Part shown: in pieces, positions 921-21,520 of the stretch | How positions within the stretch are numbered: position 1 is the first letter of the stretch | Layout of the letters: every line of letters begins with the position of its first letter | Source: Myxococcales bacterium | Lineage (GTDB): Bacteria > Myxococcota_A > UBA9042 | NCBI GenBank assembly: GCA_037441385.1 | Contig: JBBISH010000071.1 | Coordinates: 1 to 33,925, forward strand | Direction: 5' to 3' | Length of the DNA stretch: 33,925 nucleotides | Program-made: the position numbers and the translations under genes | Notes under the pieces: model-generated | What the model saw: only the letters and a program-made list of their open reading frames with translations | Databases searched by the model: none | What the model was told of the DNA's origin: nothing

Positions 921-949
921 ATTGGGGGGCACTTTCTACTCCTTGAATT
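921..949 (-). repeat. Dispersed boundary motif copy 1 (C-rich variant AGTAGAAAGTGCCCCCCAAT)
   Basis: 922-949 matches 1607-1634 at 26/28 positions. Confidence 0.85.
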
Positions 950-1016
950 GCTTGAGTTCCATGGTGGCGGTCTGGCCGCGCTTGCCATTCCCCAGCCGCT
1001 GCCCGACCATCGCCGC

Positions 1017-1592
1017 ATGACCAGCTACGCCGACGACGACTTCGCCCCCAAACGCCGCCGCCCGCCGCCGCCGCTCACCCCGCAGCGGTTGCGCGCCTTG
1101 GCCGAGGACTATGTTCAGCGCTTTGGCGGTCCGTCCAGCAACCTCAAGCGCTACCTGCAGCGGCAGGTGGACAAGGCCCTAAGCTGGCAGCAGATTCAGC
1201 AGGACGACGTGCGCGCGTGGCAGGCCGAGATGGCCAAGATCCTCGCTGAGTTCCAAGAGGCCGGCGCGGTGGACGACGCTCGCTTTGCCCAGGGCACGGC
1301 CGAGGTTCTGCAGCACCGCGGGGTGGCGCCGCGGGTGGTGGCGATGCGGCTTCGGCAAAAGGGCATCGGTCAAGCCGACATCCAAGACGCCATCGGCCAA
1401 CTGGGCGACCCGGCGGCGGCGGAGTGGCAGGCGGCCCTGAACCTGGCGCGGCGGCGGCGACTCGGGCCCTATCGGCCCGCGGAAGAACGCAAGGAGCGGC
1501 GGCAGAAGGACGCGGCGGCGCTGGCGCGGGCGGGCTTTTCGGCCGGGGTCGCTTTCAAGGTGGTGGACTTGGACCCCGACCTGCTGCCCTGA
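1017..1592 (+). CDS. recX: RecX family regulatory protein
   Basis: C-terminal part of ORF 333..1592 from ATG 1017: YVQRFGGPSSNLKRYL, VDDARFA, RLRQKGI, ARRRRLGPYR, LARAGFS, typical of RecX. Confidence 0.88.
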   Translation: MTSYADDDFAPKRRRPPPPLTPQRLRALAEDYVQRFGGPSSNLKRYLQRQVDKALSWQQIQQDDVRAWQAEMAKILAEFQEAGAVDDARFAQGTAEVLQHRGVAPRVVAMRLRQKGIGQADIQDAIGQLGDPAAAEWQAALNLARRRRLGPYRPAEERKERRQKDAAALARAGFSAGVAFKVVDLDPDLLP

Positions 1593-1605
1593 CTACCGAC
1601 AGCAG

Positions 1606-1634
1606 GTTGGGGGGCATTTTCTACTCGTTGAATT
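1606..1634 (-). repeat. Dispersed boundary motif copy 2 (AGTAGAAAATGCCCCCCAAC)
   Basis: Lies between the convergent recX and HD genes; direct repeat of copy 1. Confidence 0.85.
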
Positions 1635-1637
1635 CAC

Positions 1638-2186
1638 TCAGTCTGGCTGGGGCCGCTGGGCCAGGAGCCCGTCGAACACCGCCTCCAGCCCAGGGTGGAC
1701 ACCCCGCACCCCGGCGACCACGGCGGCGGCCCAATCGAAGTACTCGGCACGGCGCTGCAAGGACCAGTCGGCCGGCGGCGCCGCCACAAGGTCGCGCAGG
1801 TTGGCGATTTTGTCGGCCAGCTTGACCAACTTGGCGCGATGCGAGGCGTGGGCGGCATGCTCGATCTGCAGGCGCTTGCGCTCCGCCTTGGGCAGGGACT
1901 TGTCGTCGCTCACCTCGGCCACGATCCCCGCGACAACAGGGCCGAACTGGGCGACCAGCTCGTCCAGCGTGGTCCCCGTGTCCTCGACGGTGTCGTGTAG
2001 CAGCGCGCCACACAGCACGTCGATGTCGTCGACGCCGCCCTCTACGGCCAACAAAGTGGCCAGGGCCAGCGGGTGGTTGATGTAGGCCGAGGCCTCGGCG
2101 TCTTTGCGGCGCTGGGTGCGGTGGCGGTGCGCGGCAAAGCTCGCCGCACTCAAAAGTTTTTGCAGGTCCGTCGCGGGTGCCGTCAC
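1638..2186 (-). CDS. HD-domain small alarmone hydrolase (Mesh1/HDDC3-like (p)ppGpp 3'-pyrophosphohydrolase)
   Basis: GTG 2186 with GAGGAG RBS; FAAHRHRTQRRKD...YINHP, LLHDTVEDT, EVSDDKSLPKAERKRLQIEHA, KLVKLADKIANLRDL. Confidence 0.9.
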   Translation of the reverse strand: MTAPATDLQKLLSAASFAAHRHRTQRRKDAEASAYINHPLALATLLAVEGGVDDIDVLCGALLHDTVEDTGTTLDELVAQFGPVVAGIVAEVSDDKSLPKAERKRLQIEHAAHASHRAKLVKLADKIANLRDLVAAPPADWSLQRRAEYFDWAAAVVAGVRGVHPGLEAVFDGLLAQRPQPD

Positions 2187-2319
2187 GGGACTCTCCTCAA
2201 GGTAGTTGCTGGCACTGTGCGCTTGGCGGGCAGAAAGCGTCAAGTCGAGCGCCACGCAGGCCGGTGGCGGTTGGCCGACGCAGAATCGTCCGTAGTACCA
2301 GTTCCGTCCGAATCGGATT

Positions 2320-2379
2320 GAAAACTCGGGCAATTCTCCGGGCCCGAACCGGGGGCCCCGCCAGATTCTCGCCAGTTGC
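2320..2379. repeat. 60-bp intergenic repeat family B, copy 1
   Basis: Ungapped 51/60 identity to 31777-31836. Confidence 0.85.
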
Positions 2380-2488
2380 GCAACGAGTCAGACTAAGCGT
2401 ATAGGCGTGAATCAGGCGGGGTGCGCATAGCGTGGCCGCGCCGGAGGCACCGACGATTTCCGCACCCCCGGCTGACTGACTGCTGCGG

Positions 2489-2503
2489 CAAGTTGCCAAC
2501 TTG
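2489..2503. promoter_or_regulatory. Perfect 7-1-7 inverted repeat CAAGTTG-C-CAACTTG, candidate operator
   Basis: Located in the divergent intergenic region ~120 bp upstream of the monooxygenase gene; function inferred. Confidence 0.35.
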
Positions 2504-2622
2504 TTACATAAGGTTGACCACCCTCCCGCTTGCACCTGCAACGGCCTCGCCACTATCATTCTTGACCTGCGCAGCCCTGGGTGGGACCGGGCGGCTGCCA
2601 ATTCACCATCCGCGGAGAATCC

Positions 2623-3654
2623 ATGAACCCCTTGATGTGGTGCGCCTTTGCCGGGCGCCGCTCGGACTCGTCGGCGCTGGCCAAGCGCACTCCCCGTTTC
2701 GCCCGTGTTGGCGCCTTGCTGACCAGGGCCGTGCTCTTGGCCAGCGCAGTCGCGGCGTGCGAGTCGGGATCCACCGGCACTTCAGTGGTGGCTGACCAAA
2801 AGGCCAAGGGCTATCCCGTTCTGAAGGCCACCGAGGGCCGCACTTTTGTTGGCCCCAAGCTGACCATCAAGAAGGGCAAAGATGCGATGTATTGCTGGGT
2901 GCCGGACTGGTCGCCGGATCAAGACTACTGGGTGACGAAATTTACGGCTTTCCAAGGCTCGTTGGGCCACCACATCGTGGCGATGCGCTCGGACGACCCG
3001 CTGCCGCCGGGCAAGACGTGGGAGTGCAGCTCGGTGGCGGACATGGTCAACCTGCGGCCGCTGGTCTTGCCGGACAACAGCACCAAAGAGAACTTTCAGT
3101 TCCTGCCGCCGGGCGGTGCGGTCAAGCTGGCCAAGGGCACGTCGATCGTCTTCCAGTCGCACTACAACAACTACAGCGACAGCGACATCGAGATCCAGGA
3201 CGCTGCCAACCTGAGCTTCACGGCCGTTTCCCCCGAGATGGAAGTCAACTACGTCCTGGTCAACGCGAGCGATATCACGATTTTGCCGGGCGAGACTACC
3301 AGCGTCACCAAGGATTGCGAGGTGCCGATGGACCTCGACATCGTTGCGACCACCGGCCACATGCACGAATGGGGCAAGCACATCGAGGTCGACGTGGTGC
3401 CCGGCGACGGCAGCAAGTCCCAGCAGATGTATAGCGTGCCGTCCTGGACCGCCGAGTACCGCGACGCCCCGCCCGTGACCGTGCTGCACGCCGCCGGCAA
3501 AAGTGTCCACCTCAAGGCCGGCGACAAAATCCGCGTTACGTGCACCTGGCACAACGACACCCAGAAGAAGATCGGGTATCCCGCCGAGATGTGCACCAGC
3601 GTGAACTACTACACCTCCAAGAATCCCAAGGGGTTGATCCTGTGCGACGACTAG
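2623..3654 (+). CDS. Copper type II (PHM/DBH-like) monooxygenase-domain lipoprotein
   Basis: ATG 2623 after GGAG; lipobox-like AVAAC; Cu-ligand motifs GHHIV, QSHYNN, GHMHEWG, AEMC. Confidence 0.8.
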   Translation: MNPLMWCAFAGRRSDSSALAKRTPRFARVGALLTRAVLLASAVAACESGSTGTSVVADQKAKGYPVLKATEGRTFVGPKLTIKKGKDAMYCWVPDWSPDQDYWVTKFTAFQGSLGHHIVAMRSDDPLPPGKTWECSSVADMVNLRPLVLPDNSTKENFQFLPPGGAVKLAKGTSIVFQSHYNNYSDSDIEIQDAANLSFTAVSPEMEVNYVLVNASDITILPGETTSVTKDCEVPMDLDIVATTGHMHEWGKHIEVDVVPGDGSKSQQMYSVPSWTAEYRDAPPVTVLHAAGKSVHLKAGDKIRVTCTWHNDTQKKIGYPAEMCTSVNYYTSKNPKGLILCDD

Positions 3655-4103
3655 CCTCGCTCCTCTTCATCCTCGCGGGCTGCCAGGGCACTGCGGCCAC
3701 GGTCTCAACCCACGACGCGACAGACACGGCCGACACTGGCAGCGTTGCCGGCAAAGCCTGCGTCAGCGCGGTGGCCCCCTTGCACGCGTGCCAGGCGCGC
3801 TGGTGCGACAACCCCAAGGGCGTTGGTCGGCCGTGCACCAAGGGCGGCGGCGAGTGCAACCTGAACAAGGCGCTGGGCAGCGACCTGGACCTGCCGGCGG
3901 TCATCTGCACGGCGGCGTACTCGACCGAAGATCAGTTCTGCACGCGCCCGTGCGGCAGCGACGACGACTGCGGCGCCGGGGCCGTCTGCGCGGGCGACCC
4001 CGACAACCCCAAGTCCGGCAAGGGCTGCATGCTCGCCGCCTGCCTGAGCGGTTCCAGCACAGCCACCGCCGACGCGGGCAGCACCGACGCGACCGCTGAC
4101 TGA
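3642..4103 (+). CDS. Cys-rich lipoprotein, hypothetical
   Basis: GTG 3642 overlaps the upstream stop; (M)RRLASLLFILAGC lipobox; about 10 further Cys (GVGRPCTKGGGEC, FCTRPCGSDDDCGAGAVC). Confidence 0.7.
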   Translation: MRRLASLLFILAGCQGTAATVSTHDATDTADTGSVAGKACVSAVAPLHACQARWCDNPKGVGRPCTKGGGECNLNKALGSDLDLPAVICTAAYSTEDQFCTRPCGSDDDCGAGAVCAGDPDNPKSGKGCMLAACLSGSSTATADAGSTDATAD

Positions 4104-4123
4104 ATACCGCAATCATTTTGTGG

Positions 4124-4142
4124 AGTAGAATATGGCTGCATC
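4124..4142 (+). repeat. Dispersed boundary motif copy 3 (AGTAGAATATGGCTGCATC)
   Basis: One mismatch to consensus; contains the ATG at 4132. Confidence 0.85.
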
Positions 4143-4566
4143 CGTTTTCGGCGTTCGGAGCTGGCCAGTTTGGCTCCTAGCCGCCCTGGCCGCCGGCTGC
4201 GCGACCGACGACGGCGAACCGGCGACCACCAGCCAGCCCACCCTGACTTGGCTGCAGGCCAACGTGTTCAGCAAAAGCTGCGCCGTCAGCGGCTGTCACG
4301 GCGCCGGGTCGCCCGCAGCGGGCCTGAAATTGACCGACGCCCCCGCCAGCCGGGCCAGCCTGGTCGGCGTGGCCAGCCAAGTCAGCGACGGCCAAGGGGG
4401 CACGTACCTCCGCGTCGCCGCAAGTGATCCCAGCAAGTCGCTGCTCTACTTGATCGTCCAGGGCAAGGTGGGCAGCCAGCGCCAGATGCCGCCTGGGCTG
4501 GCGCTGCCGGCCGAAAAGGTCGAAGCCATCCGCGGTTGGATTGCTGCCGGCGCTCCCGCCAATTGA
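4132..4566 (+). CDS. Lipoprotein with c-type cytochrome-like domain (CX4CH)
   Basis: LAALAAGC lipobox; VFSKSCAVSGCHG, PSKSLLY, QMPPG, IRGWIAAGA resemble planctomycete/myxobacterial cytochrome c domains. Confidence 0.75.
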   Translation: MAASVFGVRSWPVWLLAALAAGCATDDGEPATTSQPTLTWLQANVFSKSCAVSGCHGAGSPAAGLKLTDAPASRASLVGVASQVSDGQGGTYLRVAASDPSKSLLYLIVQGKVGSQRQMPPGLALPAEKVEAIRGWIAAGAPAN

Positions 4567-4575
4567 GCCAATTGT

Positions 4576-4890
4576 TCAGGCCGTTGGCGCGCGCATCCGC
4601 ACCAGCCGCGTCCCGCGCGGCAGGCGTGCCGCCGTGTCGACCCAGTCCGCTCCGTCAAAATGGTAACGAACTTGCACGGCTGCGCACTCTCCGGCCTGTA
4701 GCGCGGTACCCGCGCGGGCCAAGTGCTCGGCCGGTGCCAGCTGGGCATACCCAGGGCCGCCCTTGACCGCCACGCTCTCGACCTGGGCGAATTCCTTCAG
4801 GTCCGTCAGCCACTGCGCGAGCTCGCCGGCGTCCAACCAGACCTCGTGGACAGGCGGCAAGTCCTTGACATCCAACACAGTCTCGCTCAT
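4576..4890 (-). CDS. Small hypothetical protein translationally coupled to napB
   Basis: ATG 4890 overlaps the napB stop (ATGA); 104 aa MSETVLDVKDLPPVHEVWLDAGELAQWLTDL...VQVRYHFDGADWVDT. Confidence 0.7.
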   Translation of the reverse strand: MSETVLDVKDLPPVHEVWLDAGELAQWLTDLKEFAQVESVAVKGGPGYAQLAPAEHLARAGTALQAGECAAVQVRYHFDGADWVDTAARLPRGTRLVRMRAPTA

Positions 4891-5729
4891 GGCGCGGGGG
4901 CTCCCTGCGGATTGCCGACGCTGGCCCGCGGCATCTCGCCAGCTTGCGCGCCCGGACCTGGTGGCAGCGGCGAGCGCGGCGGCCCCGGGTTCTCCAAATC
5001 CGACTGCAGCGCATGGCATTGCACGCAGCTGGTCCGCCAAGGGTGCGACGTCTTGAGCCCCAGCGCGCCGCTGTCGCCGTGGCAGGCGGTGCATTGGTTG
5101 CGCATCCAGGTGCTGTGCGGGGTGGCGGGAGGCGCCCCCGGCCAGGCGCGGCGGCCAAAACTGGGGCCCCACCAGCCTACAAAGCTGCTGCTGCCCACGC
5201 TTTGGTCCAGGCGCGCCATCGACTTGGGCAGTGGTGCGTCGGTCGGCACGTGGCATTGGGTGCAGTTGGTGTAGTTGGCGTGGCTGGCCTGCGGGATCGG
5301 CTTGCCCCCGATCAGCAGTCCCTCCATGTGGCAGGCCCCGCACGCCGCCAGTCCCTCTTGACCCACCACGTGCGGCACCCGCGGTGGCGCCCCGTCAAAC
5401 GCGCGCAGCTGGCGACGGGCCGCAACCGCCTGCTCACGCTCGGCAAAGCCAGGGTCCACGGTCGCCGAGACGTCGCGCGGCGGCATCTGCTGTAGGAGCA
5501 GCTCGCTAGCGCCCGGCGGCAGCGGATCCCGGCCGCGTTCGCGCAGTTCGCGGTAGCTCGGCGCGGGCGGTACCCCAACGGCGTCCTGCGCGGTGGGTGC
5601 CGACGCGGCCGGCCTCTCGACGTGGGTAGTCCCGGCCAAGAAGCCGACGAGCGCCACCGACAGCGCCCCGACCGCCAGCACGTGCAGCCAGCGGCCACCG
5701 GGATTGGGTTGTTTTTCATGCGTTTGCAT
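4887..5729 (-). CDS. napB: Nitrate reductase cytochrome c subunit NapB, tandem-domain tetraheme form
   Basis: ATG 5729 after GGAGGT; N-terminal TM/signal; two GAPPxxPH...CxxCH...CxQCH units (CGACH, CTQCH, CTACH, CVQCH); directly downstream of napA. Confidence 0.85.
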   Translation of the reverse strand: MQTHEKQPNPGGRWLHVLAVGALSVALVGFLAGTTHVERPAASAPTAQDAVGVPPAPSYRELRERGRDPLPPGASELLLQQMPPRDVSATVDPGFAEREQAVAARRQLRAFDGAPPRVPHVVGQEGLAACGACHMEGLLIGGKPIPQASHANYTNCTQCHVPTDAPLPKSMARLDQSVGSSSFVGWWGPSFGRRAWPGAPPATPHSTWMRNQCTACHGDSGALGLKTSHPWRTSCVQCHALQSDLENPGPPRSPLPPGPGAQAGEMPRASVGNPQGAPAP

Positions 5730-5742
5730 GGTCACCTCCGGA

Positions 5743-8232
5743 CTAGCCGTTGCCGCGCGCGGGTGCATACGCCGGCTGGGCGGGTGCGACGGCGACCTTG
5801 CGCAGGCGCACCGCGCACTTCTTGTAGTCCGGCTGCTTGCTGATCGGGCAGTGCGCCTCCAGCGTCACCTGGTTGATCAGCAACCGCTCGTCGTAGAACG
5901 GCACGAACACCAGCCCTTTTTGCGGCTTGGCCCGCCCACCGATCCACGCCGGCACTTCGATGGAGCCGCGCCGCGACTCGACCGCCACCACCTCGCCGTT
6001 CTGGATGCCCAGCGCCTTGGCGTCGTCGGGGTGGACCTCGACATAGGCCTGAGGCATCGCGTCGCGCAAGGGCGCAATCCGCATCGTCATCGTGCCGCTG
6101 TGCCAGTGTTCGATGACGCGGCCGGTACACAGCCACAGCGGGTAGTCGGCGTCGGGCACCTCGGGCGGCGCCTCATAGGGGTTGAACCAGACCTGGGCGC
6201 GGTCGTCCTTGGTCACCGAGTGGTAGAACTGGATGACCTCACCCTTCTTGACGTAGGGGTCATCGAACTCCGCGAACCGGAAGCGGGTCTCGCGCCACGA
6301 GCCGTCCGGCTGCTGCACCACCGGCCAGCGCAGACCGCGCGCCTTGACGTACTCTTGATAGGGCGCCAGGTCTTTGTGCTTGTAGCGCGAGAACTTGCGG
6401 TACTCCTCGAACAGGGCCTCGTCCACATTCCGGTCGTAGTAGTGCGGCCACTGCCAAGCCGGCACCTCGCGACCGTCTTTCTCCATGTGGAACAGGAATT
6501 TTCCGTCCACCGTCTTCATCCCCGGGTGGCCCAGCTCGAGCAGCTTGTGCGCCACCGCGAGGGTCTGCCAGCAGTCGTCGCGCGCCTCGCCGGGCGGGTC
6601 CACCATCTTGAACCACTGCTGGGTCCGCCGCTCCGAGTTGCCGAACATGCCGTTCTTCTCGACCCACATCGCGCTCGGCAGCACCAGGTCGGCGTCGCGG
6701 GTGGTCGCGGTGGGGTACACGTCCGAGACGATGAGGAACTTGTCTGGCCCCGCCTTGTGGTGACTGAACAGCTTGGTGCGATTCGGCAGCGTTTGTCCGG
6801 GGTTGGTCACCTGCACCCAGATGGTGTGGATGTCGCCGCCCTTGTCCGTGGGGGTCGAGAACTTCTCCCACATCGCCACCGTGTGGTAGCCGGGCTTGGC
6901 CAGGATGCGCCCCTTGGGAACGCCCCAAATCTCCTCCGTTTCCTCGCGGTGGTGGTCATTGGCCACCACGCGGCCGCCGGGCAGGGCGTGGGCCAGCGTG
7001 CCCACTTCGCGCACCGTTCCGCAGGCCGAAGGTTGGCCCGTCAGCGAGGTGGGCGCGTCGCCCGGTCGACCAAAATGTCCGCTGAGCAGGTGCACGCCGT
7101 GCACCAGCCGATTGATCGCCGTGCCGCGGGTGTGCTGGTTCATGCCCATGCACCAGAGCGACATGATGCGGCGCTCTTTCTGGCCAAACACCTCGAACAG
7201 CTTCTGCAGCTTGTCTTTTTCGATCCCCGAGATCTCGGCCACCTTGTCCAGCGTGTAGAACGAGACGGCCTTCTTGTACTCCTCGAAGTTCATCGGCACG
7301 CCGTCCAGGTTCGGCTTGGCCACGTCGGCGTCCTTGCGGAAGGCGACCCGCTTGTCGACGAAGGCCTGGTCGAGCTTGCCATTCTGGATCAAGTAGTTGG
7401 CGATGCCATTGGCGATCGCCAGGTCGCTCTGCGGCTTGAACATCAGCACATGGTCGGCGTGGTCCGACGACCGGGTGTGGCGCGTGGTGATGTCAAAAAT
7501 CGTCACTTTTTCGCCGCGCAGGCGCCGGTCGACGATCCGCGAGAACAGTACCGGGTGCATCTCGGCCGGGTTGTTGCCCCACAAGATGATGGTGTCGGCG
7601 GCCTCCAAGTCGTCGTAGCAGCCCGCCGGCTCGTCAACGCCGTAGGTCGAGATAAAGCCCGTCACGGCCGAGGCCATGCACAGGCGCGCGTTGGGGTCGA
7701 TGTGGTTGTGACCCAGGCCACCCTTGATGAACTTGAGCGCCGCGTACCCCTCTGGGATGGTCCACTGGCCCGAGCCGTACATCGCAAAGCCCTTGGGATC
7801 CTTCATAACTCGCTGGGCGACGATCTCGATCGCCTTCTCCCACGAGATGGGCGTCTGGCTGCCGTCGGGCTGGCGGAGCAGCGGCTGGGTCAGCCGGTCC
7901 TGGCCGTACAGGGCGAGGCCGACGTGGTAGCCCTTGACGCACAGCAGGCCCTTGTTCACTTCGGCCATGCGGTCGCCGGCGATGGCCACGACGCGCTTGC
8001 CCTTCTCGGTCTGGGCCACGCCGACCTGCACGTGGCAGCCTGTCCCACAAAAGCGGCACGGGGCCTTGTTCCAGGTCACCTCGGCGTTGCGGGCGGCGAT
8101 GCCTGGGTCCACGGCCGGGGCCGTCGTCGCGGGCGCGGTCGGCGTCGCCTCGGCGCGCGAACGCACCAGGGCCGAGGCCGCGGCCAGGGCCGACATCTGT
8201 GCGGACTTCTGCAAGAAATTGCGCCGATCCAT
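5743..8232 (-). CDS. napA: Periplasmic nitrate reductase catalytic subunit
   Basis: Tat signal MDRRNFLQ; APCRFCGTGC [4Fe-4S]; GSGQWTIPEGYAA; PNARLCMASA; SLTGQPSACGTVREVG; TGRVIEHWHSGTMT; CPISKQPDYKKCAV. Confidence 0.97.
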   Translation of the reverse strand: MDRRNFLQKSAQMSALAAASALVRSRAEATPTAPATTAPAVDPGIAARNAEVTWNKAPCRFCGTGCHVQVGVAQTEKGKRVVAIAGDRMAEVNKGLLCVKGYHVGLALYGQDRLTQPLLRQPDGSQTPISWEKAIEIVAQRVMKDPKGFAMYGSGQWTIPEGYAALKFIKGGLGHNHIDPNARLCMASAVTGFISTYGVDEPAGCYDDLEAADTIILWGNNPAEMHPVLFSRIVDRRLRGEKVTIFDITTRHTRSSDHADHVLMFKPQSDLAIANGIANYLIQNGKLDQAFVDKRVAFRKDADVAKPNLDGVPMNFEEYKKAVSFYTLDKVAEISGIEKDKLQKLFEVFGQKERRIMSLWCMGMNQHTRGTAINRLVHGVHLLSGHFGRPGDAPTSLTGQPSACGTVREVGTLAHALPGGRVVANDHHREETEEIWGVPKGRILAKPGYHTVAMWEKFSTPTDKGGDIHTIWVQVTNPGQTLPNRTKLFSHHKAGPDKFLIVSDVYPTATTRDADLVLPSAMWVEKNGMFGNSERRTQQWFKMVDPPGEARDDCWQTLAVAHKLLELGHPGMKTVDGKFLFHMEKDGREVPAWQWPHYYDRNVDEALFEEYRKFSRYKHKDLAPYQEYVKARGLRWPVVQQPDGSWRETRFRFAEFDDPYVKKGEVIQFYHSVTKDDRAQVWFNPYEAPPEVPDADYPLWLCTGRVIEHWHSGTMTMRIAPLRDAMPQAYVEVHPDDAKALGIQNGEVVAVESRRGSIEVPAWIGGRAKPQKGLVFVPFYDERLLINQVTLEAHCPISKQPDYKKCAVRLRKVAVAPAQPAYAPARGNG

Positions 8233-8259
8233 CTGCTTCCTCCTGGCCCCGAGGGGCCG

Positions 8260-8571
8260 CTACTGCTCGCTGCCCGCGCCGCCCAGCCCGTGACGCCGCC
8301 GCCGTTGCCACAGCTGGGCGCTGCTGGGCGAGATCTCTTCTCCGCTCCAGTCCACGAACGCCAGATCACAGCCGACAATACCATCCACTGAAAGCACGAA
8401 CTCGGCCTGGGTTTCCACCTGCTCGGGCGAGTCGGCCCAGGTCGCCAGGGCCACTTCCGCGCCCGCGCGGTCGCCAATCAAGACCCCGTCCGAACCTGCC
8501 AGGCGAGCAGCAATCTCCTCGAAACTGCTTGCAGAAAGGTCCAGCTTGGCGATCCAACCGACAGCAGGCAT
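8260..8571 (-). CDS. napD: NapD-like Tat chaperone
   Basis: ATG 8571 after GAGGAG; 103 aa MPAVGWIAKL...VLSVDGIVGCDLAFVD; position immediately upstream of napA. Confidence 0.7.
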   Translation of the reverse strand: MPAVGWIAKLDLSASSFEEIAARLAGSDGVLIGDRAGAEVALATWADSPEQVETQAEFVLSVDGIVGCDLAFVDWSGEEISPSSAQLWQRRRRHGLGGAGSEQ

Positions 8572-8639
8572 GGGCTCCTCGTGGGCGACCGACCCGGGTC
8601 GAAGTGGCCGTTCGCTGACCGCGAGCATGCCATACCTGC

Positions 8640-8700
8640 GCTTGCTTTACAATATAAAAAAGTCTATTGATGCGTTGTGAGCGCGGCAGGAAGCCACAAC
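8640..8700. promoter_or_regulatory. AT-rich divergent promoter region between nap and cytochrome c-nrfCD
   Basis: TTTACAATATAAAAAAGTCTATTGAT in a GC-rich context; near-palindrome TTTACAATATAAA and a GTTGTG...CACAAC inverted pair. Confidence 0.5.
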
Positions 8701-8739
8701 GGCCCGCCGCGGCGAATCCTGGAGTTGGAGCCAGAACCC

Positions 8740-11601: not shown

Positions 11602-11642
11602 ATTTCAATACCTAGAAAGTTACCTAGAAAATGGGTGCCATC
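11602..11642 (+). repeat. Dispersed boundary motif copy 4 (CCTAGAAAATGGGTGCCATC) with internal TACCTAGAAA duplication
   Basis: Between the convergent nrfD and DUF1517-like genes; TACCTAGAAA at 11609 and 11621; preceded by ATTTCAA. Confidence 0.7.
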
Positions 11643-12224: not shown

Positions 12225-12256
12225 GGGCCTCCTTGCTTGTCTCGGTGCCGCCTCGG

Positions 12257-14816: not shown

Positions 14817-14819
14817 GGG

Positions 14820-15656: not shown

Positions 15657-15753
15657 GGTCCCTCTGGGCCGGCGCTGTCGGATGCGGGGGCGCCGAGTGT
15701 CCCAAAGCTTCGCAGAACCCCCCTTGCCTCACAAGTGGCCGCCCGTCCCCGAT

Positions 15754-15926
15754 CCGCCGCTTTGGGCGCAACTCGGCGTTGCTGCGTCGTCCCAGCTACG
15801 GGTTGCCCCACTGGGGCGACCCGTTCACCCTTCGGGCGACCGCTGGGGCCCTTTTCCCTGCGGCGACCGCTAGCTCGCCTCAGTCGCTCCGCTCCTTGCG
15901 CCTTGATTTGCATCCCAATTCGGCGG
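15754..15926. repeat. Long imperfect inverted-repeat element (REP/MITE-like or structured RNA)
   Basis: Outer arms CCGCCGCTTTGGGCGCAACTCGGCG / CGCCTTGATTTGCATCCCAATTCGGCGG; inner stems ACGGGTTGCCCCA-C-TGGGGCGACCCGT and CCC-TTC-GGG closed by CCCAGC...GCTGGG. Confidence 0.65.
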
Positions 15927-15997
15927 CCGGGGCGAATTTCGGTGGTGGATCCTGGCCGTCCAACGCGGCAACGAGGCAGGGGCGAATGGCAGGGGCG

Positions 15998-16016
15998 CAT
16001 GCAGCCATTTTCTACC
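15998..16016 (-). repeat. Dispersed boundary motif copy 5 (GGTAGAAAATGGCTGCATG)
   Basis: ATGCAGCCATTTTCTAC is identical (17/17) to copy 6. Confidence 0.88.
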
Positions 16017-16140
16017 ATGCAAAAATATTGGCAAATTCTGAGTTGCCGCGGGCAGCGATGTTTGACGGCCTGCTGCGTCGTGCGTACATTCGTTTGACGC
16101 AGTTGCCCGCGAAGTGGCGCTCGGTACGTGTGCGAGGCTC

Positions 16141-16959
16141 ATGAACACCCTCATTTATCTACCGTATTCACCGTGGTCAGAGCGGGCGCGCTGGGCAATC
16201 GAGTTGTCTCAGCTGCCCCATCGGCGCAAGGTGTACACGCCGCTCCTCGGCGAACTTGGCCTCAAAGCGAAGATTGGCTGGTCCCAGCGCGCCAGCGTGC
16301 CGGTCCTGCTGACGCCCGAGGGCGCCCTGACCGACTCGCTGGAAATCGGGAAGTACGCTGACAAGCATGGTGGCGGCTGGTCGCTCTTTCCGTCGGATGG
16401 CGATGCGTCGATTGCCGAGTGGAATCAGCGGAGTAATGCGGTCTTGGAGGCGGCGCGCGGCCTGGCCTTGCCGCGGATTGCCGCCGACCCAGAGGCTCTG
16501 CTCGAGATGATCCCACGTCGCCTCCGGCCGCTCGCCCCGGTCGGTGCGCTGGCCCTCAGCCGGTACGGCGTCCTGCGGACCATCACCAAGTACCACGCCA
16601 CGGCCGGGGAATCCGTCTACCTCGCGACGATCCGGGAGCACCTCCTCGCTTTGCGCACCGCGCTGGGGCCAAACCCCGCGGACGGCCCCGCGACGCTGCT
16701 TGGGCGGTTCAGTTTCGCGGACATCACGGCGGCCCAAATGCTCCTCCCCGTCGGGCCGCACCACGGGCCCTACCTCCGCATTTCGCCGGGCAGCCGCCGG
16801 TGCTGGACCGTGGCCGAGATGGCGGCGGAGTTCGGTGACTTGCTGGCCTGGCGCGACGCCGTGTACGAGCGATACCGGCGGCCGACCGCCGACGCACGGT
16901 CCGGTGCGGACGGCCCAACCAAGGTCGGCGAGCCCGAGCCCATCCATAGCCCGAACTGA
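16141..16959 (+). CDS. Glutathione S-transferase N-terminal domain protein
   Basis: LPYSPWSERARWAI, SVPVL...LTDSLEIGKYAD, LLGRFSFADITAA. Confidence 0.85.
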   Translation: MNTLIYLPYSPWSERARWAIELSQLPHRRKVYTPLLGELGLKAKIGWSQRASVPVLLTPEGALTDSLEIGKYADKHGGGWSLFPSDGDASIAEWNQRSNAVLEAARGLALPRIAADPEALLEMIPRRLRPLAPVGALALSRYGVLRTITKYHATAGESVYLATIREHLLALRTALGPNPADGPATLLGRFSFADITAAQMLLPVGPHHGPYLRISPGSRRCWTVAEMAAEFGDLLAWRDAVYERYRRPTADARSGADGPTKVGEPEPIHSPN

Positions 16960-16976
16960 TGCAGCCATTTTCTACT
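16958..16976 (-). repeat. Dispersed boundary motif copy 6 (AGTAGAAAATGGCTGCATC)
   Basis: Exact consensus; overlaps the GST stop codon; between convergent genes. Confidence 0.9.
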
Positions 16977-17008
16977 GGTGAATATGCAAGGGGTTTAGCC
17001 TGAGTACA

Positions 17009-18091
17009 CTAGTCGGACTCCAGCCTTGGCCCGGCGCGAAGGTACGTGCCCGGCACCGAATAGAACTCGAGTACGCGAAGCGCCGCGTCGCGCGCAGGTC
17101 CCCTCTGTTTGCCGCGGTCAAAGACGAGCGCATCGACGAAGGCCGCGACATTCAATCCGATACCCACATACGGCCGCCTGACTCGCACGGCTGCCGGATC
17201 AGACGGGCTCGGTTTGAAGTTGTCGGTCGCGTACCCGACGCCAAGGTCGACATAGCGCAATACGTCGAACCGCGGTCGCAGCCGGACGGCATCTAGGCTC
17301 CCCAGGTGCAGCCACAGGCCGAACTCCATGCCCGTGTAGTCCTCGAATGTGTCGACGTCACCGCGTACTACGCGGCGTCGGTACTCCTGCGACGGCCAGT
17401 AGTGCATACGAAGGTCGAGCAGTTCGTCGACCCTCGGGTTCAGAAGGAACAGGTTTGCGGCGCCGATCCCAGCCAGGTCCGCCAGCAGGTCGCCGGTCGA
17501 AAAGCCAAAACTTCGGTGGAATCCGTCCTTCACTTCGATACCGACGAAGAAGGCGAGCGCGCCCAAACTGGCCAACGTCGCCGACAGGCCAGCTCCCAGG
17601 CCGCCGCGCTGCAACTCCTGGGCAGTTGCCCGGACTGCGACGTAGGAGCCGAACAGGTGCCCCGCTTTGTCGGCGCCGCCCGCGTAGGTATCGCCGCCGA
17701 ACCAGCCCTCGTGCACGAACGCAAAGGGGGCCTTGGCCTGATTGCCGTACCAAGCGAAGTAGGTCCACAGGCCAACTGACGACCAAAACGTGGTGATAGC
17801 ACCCAGGCTTACCGCTTGCCTGAGCCGCGTCGGGGCGCGCAGGGCCGCGTCGCTGTAGCGGAAGTCTGTAGACTCGTTTGGTCGCCACGCGCTTTCTGTC
17901 TCTGCTGCGGCCAGCCCCAGGTCTTCGCCGACTGCAGGCGAATCGGCTTGCTGCGGCGCCGAGCAGCCAAACGTCGCTGCCAGCGCGACGGCCGCCAGAA
18001 TTGCCCGGCCCGTGCTTGTCCCGCGTTGCCTGTGGTCAGTGTCGCTTGGCGGTCGGATGTTCACCTTCCACCCCAGCGGTTGTCCGGTCAC
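17009..18091 (-). CDS. DUF2279 (YfiM-like) outer-membrane lipoprotein; start uncertain
   Basis: ATFGC lipobox; EGWFG...GGADKAGHLFGSY, IEVKDGF..FGFSTGDLLAD, FEDYTG. Confidence 0.8.
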   Translation of the reverse strand: MTGQPLGWKVNIRPPSDTDHRQRGTSTGRAILAAVALAATFGCSAPQQADSPAVGEDLGLAAAETESAWRPNESTDFRYSDAALRAPTRLRQAVSLGAITTFWSSVGLWTYFAWYGNQAKAPFAFVHEGWFGGDTYAGGADKAGHLFGSYVAVRATAQELQRGGLGAGLSATLASLGALAFFVGIEVKDGFHRSFGFSTGDLLADLAGIGAANLFLLNPRVDELLDLRMHYWPSQEYRRRVVRGDVDTFEDYTGMEFGLWLHLGSLDAVRLRPRFDVLRYVDLGVGYATDNFKPSPSDPAAVRVRRPYVGIGLNVAAFVDALVFDRGKQRGPARDAALRVLEFYSVPGTYLRAGPRLESD

Positions 18092-18137
18092 GCGACCGCT
18101 ACTACTCCTCGATCAAGACCCATGCCAACAAGAACGT

Positions 18138-18165
18138 TATGCATCCTTCTTCTACGTATTGAAAT
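18138..18165 (-). repeat. Dispersed boundary motif copy 7, degenerate (ATTTCAATA-CGTAGAAGAAGGATGCATA)
   Basis: 14/19 match to the core plus the TTCAA flank shared with copies 1, 2 and 4. Confidence 0.6.
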
Positions 18166-18303
18166 TGTTAGGTTGCCTGGCGTGCAAACGAAGACAGGAC
18201 GAGAGGTTGCGGAAAATTCCGCAGCAAAATTACCGCTGGGATCGATCACCAAGATGGGCAACATGGCTGCCCGCACCCAGGTGATCATGGTCCGCAGGTA
18301 CCG

Positions 18304-18322
18304 AGTAGGAAATGGCTGCAAC
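18304..18322 (+). repeat. Dispersed boundary motif copy 8 (AGTAGGAAATGGCTGCAAC)
   Basis: One mismatch to consensus; 6 bp from the MFS stop. Confidence 0.88.
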
Positions 18323-18328
18323 CGAAAT

Positions 18329-19522
18329 TCAGGGGATTTGGAGACGGCGGGGGAGGCCCAGCCAGACCGCCGCCGCCGCCACGACGCCGAGGGCAAGGCA
18401 CCCCCCGGCAGCCGCGTGGACGCCACCGGCCAGGTCGGGCACAGCGCTGAGGTTGGCCATCCCGGGCCGGAAGCCGGCGAGGTGCCCCAGCAGGGGCACG
18501 GCAGCGGTGGCTCCAAAATTCCTAAGGAAAATGGCGGTGCTGGTCGCGGCACCTTTGGCTTCGCGCGGGGCGAGTTCCTGGACGGCCAGGTTCAGGCACG
18601 TGATGAGCACGCCCATCGCCGCGCCCAAGATGCCCAGACCCACCGGCGCCATCGTCCAGTGCCACGCCACGCCCAGACCCGCGACGAGCAGGGTCGCCCC
18701 AACTCGCAACAGCGCGGCAAGGCCCCATCGCCCCACTAGTCGGCCTGCGGCATGGCTCGCGGCCGTCCAGCTCAGGGTGAGGGGCAACAGGGCCACGCCC
18801 GCCGCCATCGAATCACCACCTTGGACGCCCTGCACCCACACTGCCACGTGCGCCAAGATGCCGTATAGCGCGGCAACTGCGAGCGCCCCGGCGCCATTGA
18901 GCACCTGTTGTGCCCGCGATCGGAACAGTCCCCTGGGCCACCACGAGTGGCCGCGGTGCACCGCCGGCTCGTCCTTCAGCGCGTGCCACACACCCCACAT
19001 CGCAGCGCCGCCCGGCAGCAGGTTCACCCAGAACACCGCTCGCCAGCCCCACGCGCCCGTCAGCCCCGCGCCCACCAGCGGCCCAAGCAGGGTCGACGCG
19101 CCCCAGACCAGCGAAATCACGCCGAACATCCGCGCGCGGTCCGCGACCGGGTAGCGGTCCCCCAGGATGACGATCGTGACCGGCATCACCGCCCCGCCGC
19201 CCAAGCCCTGAAGCACCCGTCCCGCCAGTAGAAACGGCATCGACGGCGCCCACGCCGCCACGGCCGACCCGGCCAGGAGCAGACCCATCCCCCACGCGTA
19301 CGCTGCCAGACGCCCAAATCGGTCCGCCACCGCCCCGAACACCGGCGTCGCCACCGTCGATGCCGCTATGTAGCCAGTAAAGACCCACGGGAGCAGCCCA
19401 GCATCGCGCAACTCGGTCGCGATCCGCGGCAACACTGCGTTTACGATGGCCATCTCGAGCGACGCGAGCAGAACGCCCACCATGAGCGCTGGCGCCAGGC
19501 CGTTGGGACGCGCGTCGGACAT
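18329..19522 (-). CDS. MFS drug-efflux-type transporter
   Basis: ATG 19522; LASLEMAIVNAVLP, FGAVADRFGR, GRVLQGLGGG, GPLVGAGL...WRAVFWVNL. Confidence 0.9.
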   Translation of the reverse strand: MSDARPNGLAPALMVGVLLASLEMAIVNAVLPRIATELRDAGLLPWVFTGYIAASTVATPVFGAVADRFGRLAAYAWGMGLLLAGSAVAAWAPSMPFLLAGRVLQGLGGGAVMPVTIVILGDRYPVADRARMFGVISLVWGASTLLGPLVGAGLTGAWGWRAVFWVNLLPGGAAMWGVWHALKDEPAVHRGHSWWPRGLFRSRAQQVLNGAGALAVAALYGILAHVAVWVQGVQGGDSMAAGVALLPLTLSWTAASHAAGRLVGRWGLAALLRVGATLLVAGLGVAWHWTMAPVGLGILGAAMGVLITCLNLAVQELAPREAKGAATSTAIFLRNFGATAAVPLLGHLAGFRPGMANLSAVPDLAGGVHAAAGGCLALGVVAAAAVWLGLPRRLQIP

Positions 19523-19751
19523 GTGCTCGCCAGCTCCCAAAATTGCCCCAAAGCGGTGACCATCCCGGCCCGCCGGGCGCAGACGGTGTCTCGCGGGTCG
19601 CGCCGTGTCAACACTCTCGCGCGGACTGCCCGGCAACCACAGATTTCGACTTGCATTGCCGGGCGCGGTCTGTCTACCCTAGCTCGTGACGATGGCTTCG
19701 GTGTGGGCGCAGCATGCGCCTGCGCGGCCCCAAGACGGACGCGAGGTGGCG

Positions 19752-21443
19752 ATGCCTGCACCGCAACGGTTCAAGCTTGTCCGATTCCTGCTGATGGCGA
19801 GCCTGGTTGGGTGCTCGGCCAACAATGCGAGCTCGTCGGGTGGTGCATCCCTCGACGCCAACAGCCTTGCTTTCGACACCGCCATCGACTCTGCAGCGGC
19901 GGCTGACCAAAGCGCGGCAAAGGACGCGACCGCGACAAATGCGAGTGATTCCAGCGATGTCGCGGCCCCAGGGCCCGATGTTGCCAAAGACGCCGCGATC
20001 GCGCCCGACGTCACCGCCGAAGACGCGGGCGGTTCCCCAGATGCCGTCGAGGCGGACACCGCACCGGCCGACACCGCCGCTGCCGACGCCGTCCCCGCTG
20101 ATAGTGCCGATGGCGTGGCTGCGCCCGACGGGCCACTGTGGGACATCGCGAAGGTGAGCGACCCCCTCACCGCCCAGTGCACCTTCAGCGACCCCAAGAA
20201 CGAACTCAAGGACTTGACGATGCTGTCGACCTGGCACGTCACGTACCAGTCCTGGGAGTCGGTCGAAGGCAAACTGGTCCCCATCACGATCCAGGGTTTC
20301 GCCGCCCGGCCGGCCAACGCCAGTGGCAAGCTCCCCGGCGTGATTCTTGCCCACGGTCTGGGCGGTTACGCGACCTTGGAGGGGGCCGAGAGCCTCGCCG
20401 CCCGCCTGGGCATGTTCGTCCTTGCCTACAGCGGACCGGGCAGCGGCACCAACGCCAGCGACACCTCGGGCGGCCAGGGTCCCAGCGCCAAGAACGGCTA
20501 CCGCATGTTCGACACCCTTGTCGACCCGCGCGGTTCCTGGTTCTGGGGCCACGCCACGGCGGCAATGCGCGGCGTGACCTGCCTGGCCAATCACCCCGAT
20601 GTCAACTCGGATAGCCTCGGAATTACGGGATTTTCCGCTGGCGGTGTCATGTCATGGCTGGTAGCGGCCCACGACCCGCGGATCAAGGTGGCGGTGCCGA
20701 TGTCGGGATCCCTCGCCTGGGACGTCGCCACGCAGTCCCCCACGGCCTGGCAACACACGTTGCTGCAAAAGGCCGGGTTGTCGGTCGACAGCCCCGAGTG
20801 GAAAAAGCTCATGAGCGACCTGATCAGTCCCGCCCTGGGCCTCCCCACCACCTCTGTCAAGGTGCTCATGCTCAACGGCACGACCGACGAGTTCTTCCCG
20901 TTGACCGCCACGCAGGCCACCTTCAGCCAACTGCCGGGAAGTGACCACCGCTACTCGCTGATCGGCAACTTTGACCACGGCTGCTTTGGCCTTACCGGCG
21001 GGGAAGCCAAGGCCGACATCGAAGCGCGCGCCAGCCTCCACGCCGACGGCGGACAGCGGATGTGGTTCCGCCACTGGTTCGGCACGGATGCGAACTACGC
21101 GTACGTGCCGCAACCACCCCAAGTCAGCGTGCAATCCGCCAACGGCCTCTCGCTCGTCACTGCCGTGGTCGATAGCGGTGGCAGCAAGCTCGCGGTCGAC
21201 GAAGTGCGTGCCTGGGCCAGCGGCGACAACTGCTACTTCTACGCCTCTGCCACGCTGGATAGCGGCAAGAACGGCGTCTGGTCCAAGCTCGTGCCCCTGG
21301 CTTTCCCGCCCAACGCCGTCTACTACGTCGACGTCCAGTACAAGACCAAGACGCTCGTGCCCGAGAAGTTCACCATCAGCTCCGCGCCCGTCATTCCTGC
21401 CGGACTTGTCCCCAAGATTCGGGCCATCGACAGCTGCCAGTAG
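19752..21443 (+). CDS. Lipoprotein alpha/beta hydrolase (esterase/peptidase-like)
   Basis: ATG 19752 after GAGG; SLVGC lipobox; acidic A/D linker; [15 protein letters not shown] nucleophile elbow, [13 protein letters not shown]. Confidence 0.85.
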
Positions 21444-21501
21444 ATCCCGTGCTCCAAGTCCTGGCTGGGATGTTGCTGAAAAATCATCAAACAAATCCTA
21501 T

Positions 21502-21520
21502 AGTAGAAAATGGCTGCAAC
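21502..21520 (+). repeat. Dispersed boundary motif copy 9 (AGTAGAAAATGGCTGCAAC)
   Basis: Exact consensus, preceded by an A-rich tract; ~80 bp upstream of the VF530 gene. Confidence 0.9.

Follow-up and report, generated by a model that had tools for sequence, protein, structure and literature searches.

What is the short, oriented motif that recurs between the genes of this stretch of 33,925 nucleotides (the window) from a Myxococcales bacterium, and where does it come from? A search with the 19-mer AGTAGAAAATGGCTGCAWC recovered five matches in the window, all within two mismatches (4124(+), 15998(-), 16958(-), 18304(+) and 21502(+)), compared with a mean of 0.02 expected from 100 shuffles, none of which held five. 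This agrees with five of the nine copies listed in the first-pass annotation, but the other four (921, 1606, 11623 and 18138) each have more than three mismatches to the 19-mer. Sites 921 and 1606 share the sequence AGTAGAAA[G/A]TGCCCCCCAA, which is the major form genome-wide rather than the consensus proposed there; site 11623 reads CCTAGAAAATGGGTGCCATC and site 18138 reads CGTAGAAGAAGGATGCATA.

The repeat and its copies in the window

The full repeat unit is approximately 41 bp long (aAAAattCAATAATTTCAAnnAGTAGAAAATGCCCCCCAAt), with an AT-rich inner half followed by the constant GTAGAAAATG and then, at the outer side, an 8-mer that varies with the clade of a Y1 transposase described below. 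The 19-mer is a minor variant of this repeat, and the AT-rich upstream flank already noted for the motif is present and longer than had been proposed. We built a 41-column weight matrix from every GTAGAAAATG site in the genome, using a threshold of 8 in the window and a score of at least 12 for the genome count. Seven window sites were scored (range 14–48), with sites 11623 and 18304 falling below 8 because their 5′ half is absent. Taken together, the window contains two CCCCCC-type solo copies, four GGCTGCA-type solos, one degenerate copy, and one deleted relic of a GGCTGCA/GGATGCA-type Y1 element (Table 1). The GGTGCC variant seen in the degenerate copy has two further occurrences in the genome. 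The intergenic placement reported for the motif holds on the Pfam map of the window, and three copies do lie between convergent genes (recX/HD, NrfD/GSP operon and GST/DUF2279).

Table 1. Repeat copies and Y1 element remnants in the window, with orthologous copies in sister species G005 and G007.
Feature	Position	Strand	Matrix score	Context	Sister species
Solo 41-bp repeat, CCCCCC type	921..961	-	44	Divergent spacer, ORF 3-932(-) / recX(+); GTG at 932 falls within the copy	G005: beside recX, different 8-mer GGATGCTA
Solo repeat, CCCCCC type	1606..1646	-	48	Convergent recX (stop 1592) / HD-domain gene (stop 1638), Pfam	G005: present, GGATGCTT; G007: contig C406 begins 14 nt past this position
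Solo repeat, GGCTGCA type	4103..4143	+	34	ATG within the copy (4132) starts lipoprotein-like gene 4132-4566	G007: copy and ATG start kept, extra direct copy ~150 nt upstream
Degenerate repeat 3′ half, CTAGAAAATGGGTGCC	11623..11642	+	below 8	NrfD(+) / GSP operon(-) spacer	
Solo repeat, GGCTGCA type	15997..16037	-	35	DUF350 gene(-) / GST(+) spacer	G007: orthologous, two direct copies
Solo repeat, GGCTGCA type	16957..16997	-	34	Overlaps GST stop (16959); convergent GST / DUF2279	G007: GGATGCAT
Left terminal repeat of decayed Y1 element, GGATGCA-like 8-mer	18137..18177	-	14		
Remnant of Y1 element leader and first six codons (ATGGTCCGCAGGTACCGA, 18287-18304)	18178..18304	+		By alignment to G007	
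Right-end core of the same Y1 element (AGTAGGAAATGGCTGCAAC)	18304..18322	+		1 mismatch to the 19-mer	
Solo repeat, GGCTGCA type	21481..21521	+	33	Upstream of VF530 gene	G007: GGATGCAT, plus second copy; G005: GGATGCGA

A lineage-restricted repeat family

Scanning the whole genome with the matrix gave 168 copies, compared with 3 in a shuffled genome, and the window is enriched (7 copies against 0.86 expected). The centres of just 20 of the 168 fall inside the cores of high-confidence ORFs, which make up 74.8% of the genome, so that the intergenic bias seen in the window extends to the genome as a whole. The repeat takes three forms: inverted ends of Y1 elements of about 1.2 kb, inverted ends of doublets that carry no gene, and solos, which account for most copies (105 of 168). 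The gene-less doublets are mostly 264–298 bp in length, and 14 of 18 outward-facing (-+) neighbour pairs have a spacing of 223–257 bp. Doublet interiors are conserved and carry subterminal copies of TTCAGAAA[AT]TGCCCCCC; three doublets showed long-hairpin folding (z −4 to −9), and inspection of the flanks of the 18 listed doublets revealed no target duplication. On its own, the 41-mer shows no tendency to fold into a hairpin (80 copies, mean z −0.30), no complementary stem appeared among the top mutual-information pairs, and a mini-stem of 3–4 bp has weak support, with a Fisher p of 0.009 from copies that are not independent. Measured against GC skew, the copies have no strand bias (23 versus 28, with 117 of the 168 uninformative), and an Rfam search with the repeat gave no match.

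The family has a narrow distribution. The core GTAGAAAATG occurs 96 times in this genome (G000), 91 times in G005 and 99 times in G007, compared with 0–4 occurrences in each of eight other genomes of the genus, and the closest Y1 homologues are likewise in G005 and G007. Solo copies are retained at orthologous sites between these species although the surrounding spacers have diverged past alignment, with the 8-mer differing between orthologous copies. This retention points to long residence, and perhaps a host-side function, more than to frequent jumping.

The Y1 transposase and its elements

In the complete elements of G007 and G005, inverted copies of the repeat flank a single gene on either side, establishing the physical association of the repeat with a transposase gene that the first-pass annotation had suggested looking for. 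These elements of about 1.2 kb are multi-copy, and their sole gene encodes a 335–350 aa HUH/Y1 transposase; in 7 of 10 elements, the TAG within GTAG serves as the stop codon of its reading frame. In this genome, 21 copies stand at contig ends, all pointing inward; one end is common to six contigs (96–100% identity) and the other to seven (95–100%), and between them these ends supply the N-terminal and the C-terminal portion of a single Y1 protein. A CCCCCC-type Y1 gene was reconstructed in this way, though the assembly contains no complete Y1 element. The cognate GGCTGCA-type gene is intact and framed by the repeat in both sister species, but no close Y1 gene of that type was found in this assembly (90.9% complete), leaving the window copies of that type without a recorded resident cognate enzyme. 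The suggestion that the recombinase is encoded elsewhere was therefore right in spirit.

The protein scores 23.5–23.9 bits against Pfam Y1_Tnp (cut-off 23) and 39 bits against NCBIfam REP_Tyr_transpos, covering 140 of 146 profile positions, which is below the cut-off of 80. The fold and the catalytic motifs bear this out: the AlphaFold model (pLDDT 80.6) has as its top PDB match 4er8_A, the structure of E. coli TnpA-REP with a REP hairpin (E 2.4e-5), and the transposases of ISDra2 and IS608 come next, while N58-H59-Y60-H61, W98, R101, Y120 and Q124 show no variation across 13 paralogues. Outer 8-mers are distributed according to the Y1 tree, each clade having its own: GGCTGCA twice and GGATGCA in clade 1 (support 99/99), CCCCCC three times in clade 2 (100/100), and CCC[AG]CCAT three times in clade 3 (94/97).

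Window positions 18137-18322 are an internally deleted relic of a GGCTGCA/GGATGCA-type Y1 element. An intact element occupies the orthologous DUF2279|MFS spacer in G007 (contig C394), where its left-end copy aligns with 18137..18177. The alignment of 18178..18304 continues as far as GGTACCGA, after which G007 runs into the Y1 reading frame (...RPDLVHEVTLRTIDGRWWF...); in the window, codon 6 is joined instead to the right-end core through the loss of roughly 1 kb of internal sequence, and 18304..18322 aligns with the right end found at the beginning of G007 contig C461. Copies of the GCTGC type cluster around the relic, with 4 of 14 in the window against 0.07 expected.

Origin of the motif

We consider it likely that a lineage-restricted family of elements, encoding this RAYT-like, TIRYT-like transposase, has the motif as its terminal repeat, and the earlier idea of scars left by the ends of a mobile element was essentially correct. 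IS608 TnpA and E. coli TnpA-REP nick and rejoin single-stranded DNA at their hairpins. By analogy, the Y1 enzyme may recognise the constant GTAG-containing part together with the clade-specific 8-mer, and would nick and rejoin single-stranded DNA at or beside the outer end, whereby units bounded by the repeat could be copied or moved. The 105 solos count against an element origin, since to our knowledge solos are not a product of two-ended transposition; they could arise by internal deletion, loss of one end or one-ended events, and then be kept for a long time. Further points against this origin are that this assembly has neither a complete Y1 element nor a close GGCTGCA-type gene, and that hairpin potential in the 41-mer, target duplication and strand bias are all missing.

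The main idea of the first-pass annotation was a cassette or module-recombination system. Here, pairs of co-oriented copies would act as recombination ends, and the Y1 enzyme would cut out the gene between them and insert it whole. We think this rather unlikely, even though some of it has a basis in the comparisons. One filled/empty pair was found, in which a spacer on C9 of this genome, and likewise in G007, holds a copy, a 392-aa ORF and a second copy, and the G005 spacer is about 120 nt without ORF or copy, but its junctions are not alignable to the base. Among neighbouring copies separated by 300–3000 bp, there are 17 co-oriented pairs and 7 inverted ones; recX and GST in the window, and an AAA_33 kinase gene on C80, are each flanked by two co-oriented copies. 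Several conserved blocks also end at or near copies: at window position 930 against G005, 5 nt short of a copy on C80 against G007, and 1–12 nt short on C28 against both, and the block from HD to NrfD (1646-11623), which recX and the GSP operon flank here, is not found between them in G005. However, breakpoints are expected in spacers regardless, and spacers in these regions are copy-rich; G007 remains collinear with the window over five copies, the DNA that G005 and G007 have in place of the C80 segment contains no copies, and 0 of 87 scanned window ORFs match integrase families in Pfam. Cassette movement is compatible with the Y1-element origin and would add a function to the Y1 system.

Less probable again is that solos, whatever their origin, are kept as a host promoter, terminator, mRNA-end element, protein-binding site or translation start. 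Conservation at orthologous sites within spacers that no longer align would fit such a role, as would the lipoprotein-like gene that starts at the repeat's ATG in both G000 and G007, and so would position: 60 of the 168 copies are no more than 60 nt away from a high-confidence gene's stop codon, with the gene converging on the outer end in 41 of the 60. Against this, the repeat has neither a hairpin nor an Rfam match, copies are oriented both ways with respect to neighbouring coding strands, and the 8-mer switches at orthologous sites, which is odd for a fixed protein-binding site. Among copies at 800-20700, just one shares positions with a sigma-70-like match and just one is next to a terminator-like match, totals no higher than in shuffles, and ORFs opening at the repeat's ATG or GTG have a median of 48 codons (104 sites). 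Nothing favoured the nucleoid-binding or uptake-sequence roles raised earlier. It was also considered whether unrelated genes resemble each other by chance through a shared ribosome-binding context and first codons (M-A-A or M-P-P), as the ATG or GTG of three window copies opens an ORF (932, 4132 and 16968). This is barely credible. It is contradicted by the stops that follow within 48 codons at about half of the 104 sites and by the same sequence at the ends of doublets and Y1 genes; in addition, some copies separate convergent genes, and it is the nucleotide sequence that is conserved, as far as 30 nt upstream.

Comparison with known systems

The terminal repeat of a Y1 element resembles attC cassettes and pdif modules in being a short oriented site between single genes, with some co-oriented arrays and variable gene content there, but it has no attC-type palindrome or XerC/D-type 11-6-11 site, no scanned window ORF matches a tyrosine-recombinase or integrase family, and the enzyme is an HUH nuclease. 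IS200/IS605 elements (IS608, ISDra2) share the HUH/Y1 fold and Y-x3-Q signature, one of the present clades is similarly multi-copy, and the same mode of action would apply to cargo lying between two ends that are recognised on one strand. Their ends are subterminal hairpins and their TnpA is about 150 aa, whereas the present ends are inverted repeats, the protein is 335–350 aa and strand bias is absent.

RAYT/REP systems, reportedly treated by Nunvar in 2010, are closer. The best structural (4er8) and NCBIfam matches of the Y1 protein are to this group, the repeat contains the GTAG tetranucleotide, the gene lies between inverted repeats, doublets are REPIN-like, copies are extragenic, and the repeat persists at orthologous sites with one Y1 locus vertically inherited. 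Unlike RAYTs with their REP/REPIN populations (Bertels and Rainey 2011, PMC3116915), the single unit has no hairpin, the NCBIfam score of 39 is under the cut-off, the protein has double the length, doublets mostly span 264–298 bp and have a long conserved interior, and the majority of copies are solos sharply delimited at 41 bp.

Di Nocera et al. (2013, PMC3733652) introduced the name TIRtrons, with TIR-associated tyrosine transposases (TIRYT), for Y1 genes flanked by dispersed inverted repeats, and TIRYT are mostly of TnpA-Y1 subclass 2.1 (Quentin et al. 2018, PMC6006769); the available portions of this literature contained no biochemical tests of such enzymes. As in TIRtrons, a RAYT-like Y1 gene sits between inverted repeats other than REP hairpins, the repeat families are moderately abundant and occur as singles, dimers and groups, and several Y1 genes may coexist in a genome, each paired with a repeat of its own. 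The present repeat contains GTAG, whereas the published TIRs are said to have no relation to GTAG repeats; the outer end of the present repeat, GGGGGGCA, departs from GGGGWSAS, the protein lacks the DnaA_C/HTH tail (Pfam) and has Y-x3-Q rather than Y-x3-NP, and one clade is multi-copy and insertion-sequence-like, with the 8-mer tracking the Y1 clade. Since TIRYT/TIRtron and RAYT/REP are the closest known systems, this is not the undescribed system that had been proposed as a candidate but one of a known and little-studied kind; what is new here is an unusual, hairpin-free version of the repeat.

The repeat in the window and across the genome

Nine copies of a motif had been counted in the window in the first-pass annotation, which read them as a candidate cassette/recombination or nucleoid-binding system. 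Five of these sites stand as copies of one 19-mer at two mismatches or fewer (shuffled sequence gave 0.02), and the other four share only part of it (see table). The claim of intergenic placement held for all nine, none of which reaches further into a gene than its start or stop codon in a Pfam gene map that includes recX, HD-domain and Cu-monooxygenase-like genes, NapA with cytochrome, FeS and NrfD genes, a GSP-synthase/DUF350 operon, GST, DUF2279, MFS, hydrolase and VF530. Named relatives of the window NapA are mostly from Polyangia/Myxococcota. The spacer between the HD and monooxygenase-like genes also holds a copy of a 132–135 bp non-coding repeat, for which 29 of the 30 matches listed in this genome (G000) are copies elsewhere in it; the orthologous spacer in the sister species G007 (contig C406) is without this repeat and measures 125 nt vs. 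259 nt in the window.

Repeat copies and associated features in the window and in other contigs of G000
Feature	Location	Sequence or remark
Motif sites within 2 mismatches of the 19-mer	window 4124 (+), 15998 (−), 16958 (−), 18304 (+), 21502 (+)	AGTAGAAAATGGCTGCAWC
Variant motif sites	window 921 and 1606	AGTAGAAA[G/A]TGCCCCCCAA
Variant motif site	window 11623	CCTAGAAAATGGGTGCC
Variant motif site	window 18138	CGTAGAAGAAGGATGCA
Stretches collinear with G007	window 1660–5350, 9028–18304, 18357–21919	
Relic of a Y1 element	window 18137–18322	
Left repeat of the relic	window 18137–18177	
Right-end core of the relic	window 18305–18322	GTAGGAAATGGCTGCAAC
Copies with orthologues in G007	window 4103, 15997, 16957, 18137, 21481	
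Copies of varying 8-mer class, with orthologues	window 921–961, 1606–1646, 16957–16997, 21481–21521	CCCCCCAA, GGCTGCAx, GGATGCxx
132–135 bp non-coding repeat	window ~2296–2428	
Repeat ATG	window 4132	start of a lipoprotein-like gene in G000 and G007
Complete Y1 paralogue	C26, 54.9–56.8 kb (L001/L006)	337 aa
Second, unrelated Y1 gene	C37, ~45.9–46.9 kb	~300 aa, MRYPRLDYPGARHHVMNRG..., HuH = NHYH
Copy–ORF–copy unit	C9, 19749–21061 (L075 1750–3062)	392-aa ORF
Array of six co-oriented copies	C80, 11180–18987 (L005 8181–15988)	CCCCCC type

Across the G000 assembly (6.63 Mb in 221 contigs, of which the window is C71; 66.9% GC, 90.9% complete), a 41-column matrix with the consensus aAAAattCAATAATTTCAAnnAGTAGAAAATGCCCCCCAAt, in which GTAG is present and nearly invariant, found 168 copies at a score of at least 12 vs. 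3 in a block-shuffled genome, and 7 in the window where 0.86 are expected; statistics throughout this analysis are overstated, since copies and genomes share kinship. Intergenic bias also holds at genome scale, with 20 of the 168 copy centres in the core of a high-confidence ORF when such ORFs make up 74.8% of the genome. The ORFs came from our own codon-usage gene finder, which called 3660 genes, missed recX and NrfD, and was used for this test and for stop-codon distances only. The 10-mer GTAGAAAATG is abundant in G000 (96 occurrences) and in the sister species G005 (91) and G007 (99) only, with 0–4 in the other eight genomes of the genus. Of the 95 G000 sites whose flanks are complete, 72 continue with C (CCCCCCA in the major form) and 21 with G, the form first noticed in the window. 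Rfam gave no match in the window, and the ten papers listed out of 185 matches to the 10-mer in a literature search were unrelated.

Solos, or lone copies, account for 105 of the 168. Other copies form doublets, gene-less elements with two inverted copies: 14 of 18 outward-facing neighbour pairs are spaced 223–257 bp apart and most doublets are 264–298 bp long. Their interiors are GC-rich, conserved and common to doublets, with subterminal TTCAGAAA[AT]TGCCCCCC copies, and three doublets taken as single strands fold into long hairpins via their terminal repeats. At contig ends there are 21 copies, no more than 600 nt from the end and facing inward; one end sequence is common to six contigs (96–100% identity) and another to seven (95–100%). 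Such repeated contig ends are the signature of a multi-copy element breaking the assembly, and the assemblies analysed here break at exactly these repeats.

Y1 transposase genes framed by the repeat

One end type encloses DNA coding for MPIRLYDPSLLHLVTLR...VMANHYHGLYS..., and alignment to a complete G007 homologue places the C-terminus of the same protein inside the other. A transposase gene flanked by the motif, which the first-pass annotation had suggested looking for, was found in the sister species, where Y1 genes in G007 and G005 are framed by inverted copies. Both ends are present in nine complete elements, and the G000 contig ends fit the same architecture. One or two reverse copies lie on the upstream side, pairs being 168–203 bp apart, and one forward copy at the 3′ end. 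In 7 of 10 complete elements (L030, L032, L033, L035, L038, L028 and L031) the TAG within GTAG serves as the Y1 stop codon; the frame of L008 was not picked out by the ORF script. Pattern search found no GTAGAAAATG-type pair at the ends of the Y1 paralogues L036, L037, L039 and L040.

The protein matches Pfam PF01797 (Y1_Tnp) at 23.5–23.9 bits against a cut-off of 23, and NCBIfam REP_Tyr_transpos at 39 bits, below the cut-off of 80, with 140 of 146 profile positions aligned. NHYH, W98, R101 and Y120-x3-Q124 are invariant across 13 paralogues from the three genomes. An AlphaFold model (pLDDT 80.6) has its best match in 4er8_A, E. coli TnpA-REP on its hairpin (E 2.4e-5, 146 columns), followed by the ISDra2 and IS608 transposases (2xm3, 2vjv), and three folds span E 2e-5 to 5e-4. 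The protein has the HuH motif, the catalytic tyrosine and, in its predicted structure, the Y1 fold that define the HUH/Y1 superfamily. Searches detected this Y1 family in 20 of 24 further genomes belonging to the same taxonomic family, against 0 of 16 genomes drawn from twelve other families in that class. Among 5.8 billion protein clusters searched, no more than 15 relatives turned up, with names such as hypothetical, transposase or RayT.

The eight bases that follow GTAGAAAATG are CCCCCC(AA/TT) in three elements, CCC[AG]CCAT in five, GGCTGCA[TA] in two (G007:C477 and G005:C146) and GGATGCAT in one. Y1 proteins whose ends share an 8-mer class cluster together in a maximum-likelihood tree (support 99/99, 100/100 and 94/97), and therefore the variant first noticed in the window belongs to a single Y1 clade as its cognate end. 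At least 6–7 near-identical copies exist of the CCCCCC type.

The only complete Y1 paralogue in the G000 assembly, on contig C26, is preceded by two reverse copies of a distinct though related repeat, whose forward-strand reading is CAGAAAATGTCCGACAT, and no matching downstream copy was found by pattern search. As a separate observation, the unrelated Y1 gene on contig C37 is framed by inverted GGTCAGGTATTGACACTTGACACC repeats and looks like a classic TIRYT locus.

A deleted Y1 element and the persistence of copies

In the DUF2279/MFS spacer, G007 has an intact Y1 element, split across two contig ends. What the window retains is the left repeat and the leader with its six opening codons (ATGGTCCGCAGGTACCGA), which run straight into the right-end core. 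Since the left end and codons are joined to the right-end core, the divergent motif pair of the first-pass annotation is a Y1 element minus ~1 kb. The relic is, in effect, a newly made doublet, and internal deletion makes doublets. A close GGCTGCA-type Y1 gene was not found elsewhere in G000. The window alone accounts for four of 14 GCTGC-type copies genome-wide (0.07 expected), a clustering consistent with local spread from the relic element.

Orthologous copies occur in G007 at five window sites, three of which have a second direct copy 110–160 nt away there, and in G005 at either flank of recX and in the spacer ahead of VF530. The spacers around these copies hardly align and the constant part of the repeat is kept. 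The 8-mer differs between species at the recX site (CCCCCCAA vs. GGATGCT), at 16957 (GGCTGCAT vs. GGATGCAT) and at 21481 (GGCTGCAA, GGATGCAT and GGATGCGA); such differences at the same site may reflect re-insertion, conversion or drift.

The repeat is tied to Y1 genes both physically and phylogenetically, the proteins have the motifs and the modelled fold of HUH/Y1 enzymes, and the copies persist. As to mechanism, the Y1 enzyme would read the GTAG-containing constant part together with its own 8-mer and would nick single-stranded DNA near the outer end. Solos may be leftovers of deletion or of one-ended events.

Gene content at copies and alternative readings

Among neighbouring copies separated by 300–3000 bp, 17 pairs share one orientation and 7 are inverted. 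It is possible, though we think it unlikely, that co-oriented copies serve as working ends, with Y1 lifting [repeat–gene–repeat] units as single strands and pasting them elsewhere, the clade 8-mer being an enzyme-specific address. If true, this would be a HUH-nuclease-driven gene-cassette system, of a kind that we did not find described in the literature examined, it would be a new gene-shuffling route for passenger genes in Myxococcota, and it would explain the module-like partition seen in the first-pass annotation. The gene-content variation at copies fits this idea. On contig C9 a 392-aa ORF without a Pfam match sits between two copies, as it does in G007:C402, and the same spacer in G005:C223 is ~120 nt with neither the ORF nor the copies; the insertion junctions lie in spacers too diverged for alignment. 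The array on contig C80 separates AAA_33 kinase, Imm26-like, unknown and GmrSD restriction genes; G007 homology ends 5 nt before its first copy, and G005 and G007 have unrelated, copy-free DNA replacing most of the stretch. On contig C28, homology to G005 and to G007 breaks off 1–12 nt before a copy. In the window, homology to G005 near recX begins within the 921 copy and extends to 1571; in G005 itself, recX and the GSP operon do not have the HD...NrfD block between them, and the hydrolase gene is absent between MFS and VF530. The same variation also fits repeats that merely gather in variable DNA.

An integron cassette array would have attC hairpin sites and an IntI integrase; here the repeat is without a hairpin and no integrase family matched in the 87 window ORFs scanned. 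A hairpin or REP-like fold of the repeat unit was not seen by either approach: 80 copies of the 41-mer did not fold beyond expectation (mean MFE −2.5 kcal/mol, z −0.30), no complementary stem was among the top mutual-information pairs, and a mini-stem (A)ATG-N5-CAT(T) of 3–4 bp is weakly supported. A sigma-70 promoter or intrinsic terminator role was rejected for the copies in window 800–20700, where one coincides in part with a promoter-like match and one borders on a terminator-like match, with totals not above shuffles. Nor do copies generally behave as start codons or leader peptides, as ORFs from the repeat ATG/GTG have a median of 48 codons (104 sites).

Many genomes carry Y1 genes set between inverted repeats, and such genes are almost unstudied. 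This lineage offers a clean natural experiment, with several paralogous enzymes in one genus whose cognate ~41 bp differ mainly in 8 bases, which is where specificity may lie. Stages of the life cycle can be seen side by side, from active multi-copy elements through a vertically kept element and a deleted relic (the new doublet) to old solos. Anyone annotating these genomes can trace contig breaks, and some start and stop codons, to the repeat.

Comparison with known systems

IS200/IS605 elements have subterminal hairpins, no inverted ends and a bias in replication orientation, whereas the ends here are inverted repeats and the copies split 23 vs. 28 by replication strand, a count of low power, with 117 of 168 in weak-skew regions or on short contigs. 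MITEs are short gene-less elements with inverted ends and target-site duplication; the 18 doublets, possibly of this type, have inverted ends, and no target duplication was seen in the flanks examined. Domesticated RAYTs, as Bertels reportedly described in 2017, are single-copy and vertically inherited, and the GGCTGCA/GGATGCA-type element occupies the same DUF2279/MFS spacer in both species, intact in G007 and reduced to a relic in G000; the CCCCCC type is multi-copy.

A Y1 gene framed by inverted copies of a dispersed repeat is the REPtron/TIRtron architecture, and the arrangement here is that of TIRtrons/TIRYT as presented in PMC3733652; the likeness to RAYT/REP/REPIN is looser. REP sequences form a hairpin whose stem is 7–20 bp long and whose base carries a 5′ GT[AG]G, while the present repeat has GTAG without a hairpin. 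Class-2 RAYT/TnpA-REP proteins are defined by the tyrosine motif Y-x3-NP, according to PMC6006769, whereas this family has Y120-x3-Q124 and falls short of the NCBIfam cut-off for RAYT/TnpA-REP. In subclass 2.1 TIRYTs the protein has a C-terminal HTH (Bac_DnaA_C, HTH_23 or HTH_28), and the TIR contains a GGGGWSAS box; Pfam finds no such domain in the 337-aa paralogue, and the outer end here is GGGGGGCA, GATGCAGCC or similar. Given the TIRtron arrangement and the lack of these REP, class-2 RAYT, subclass 2.1 and IS200/IS605 features, we regard the system as a variant within the known TIRtron/RAYT-like kind.
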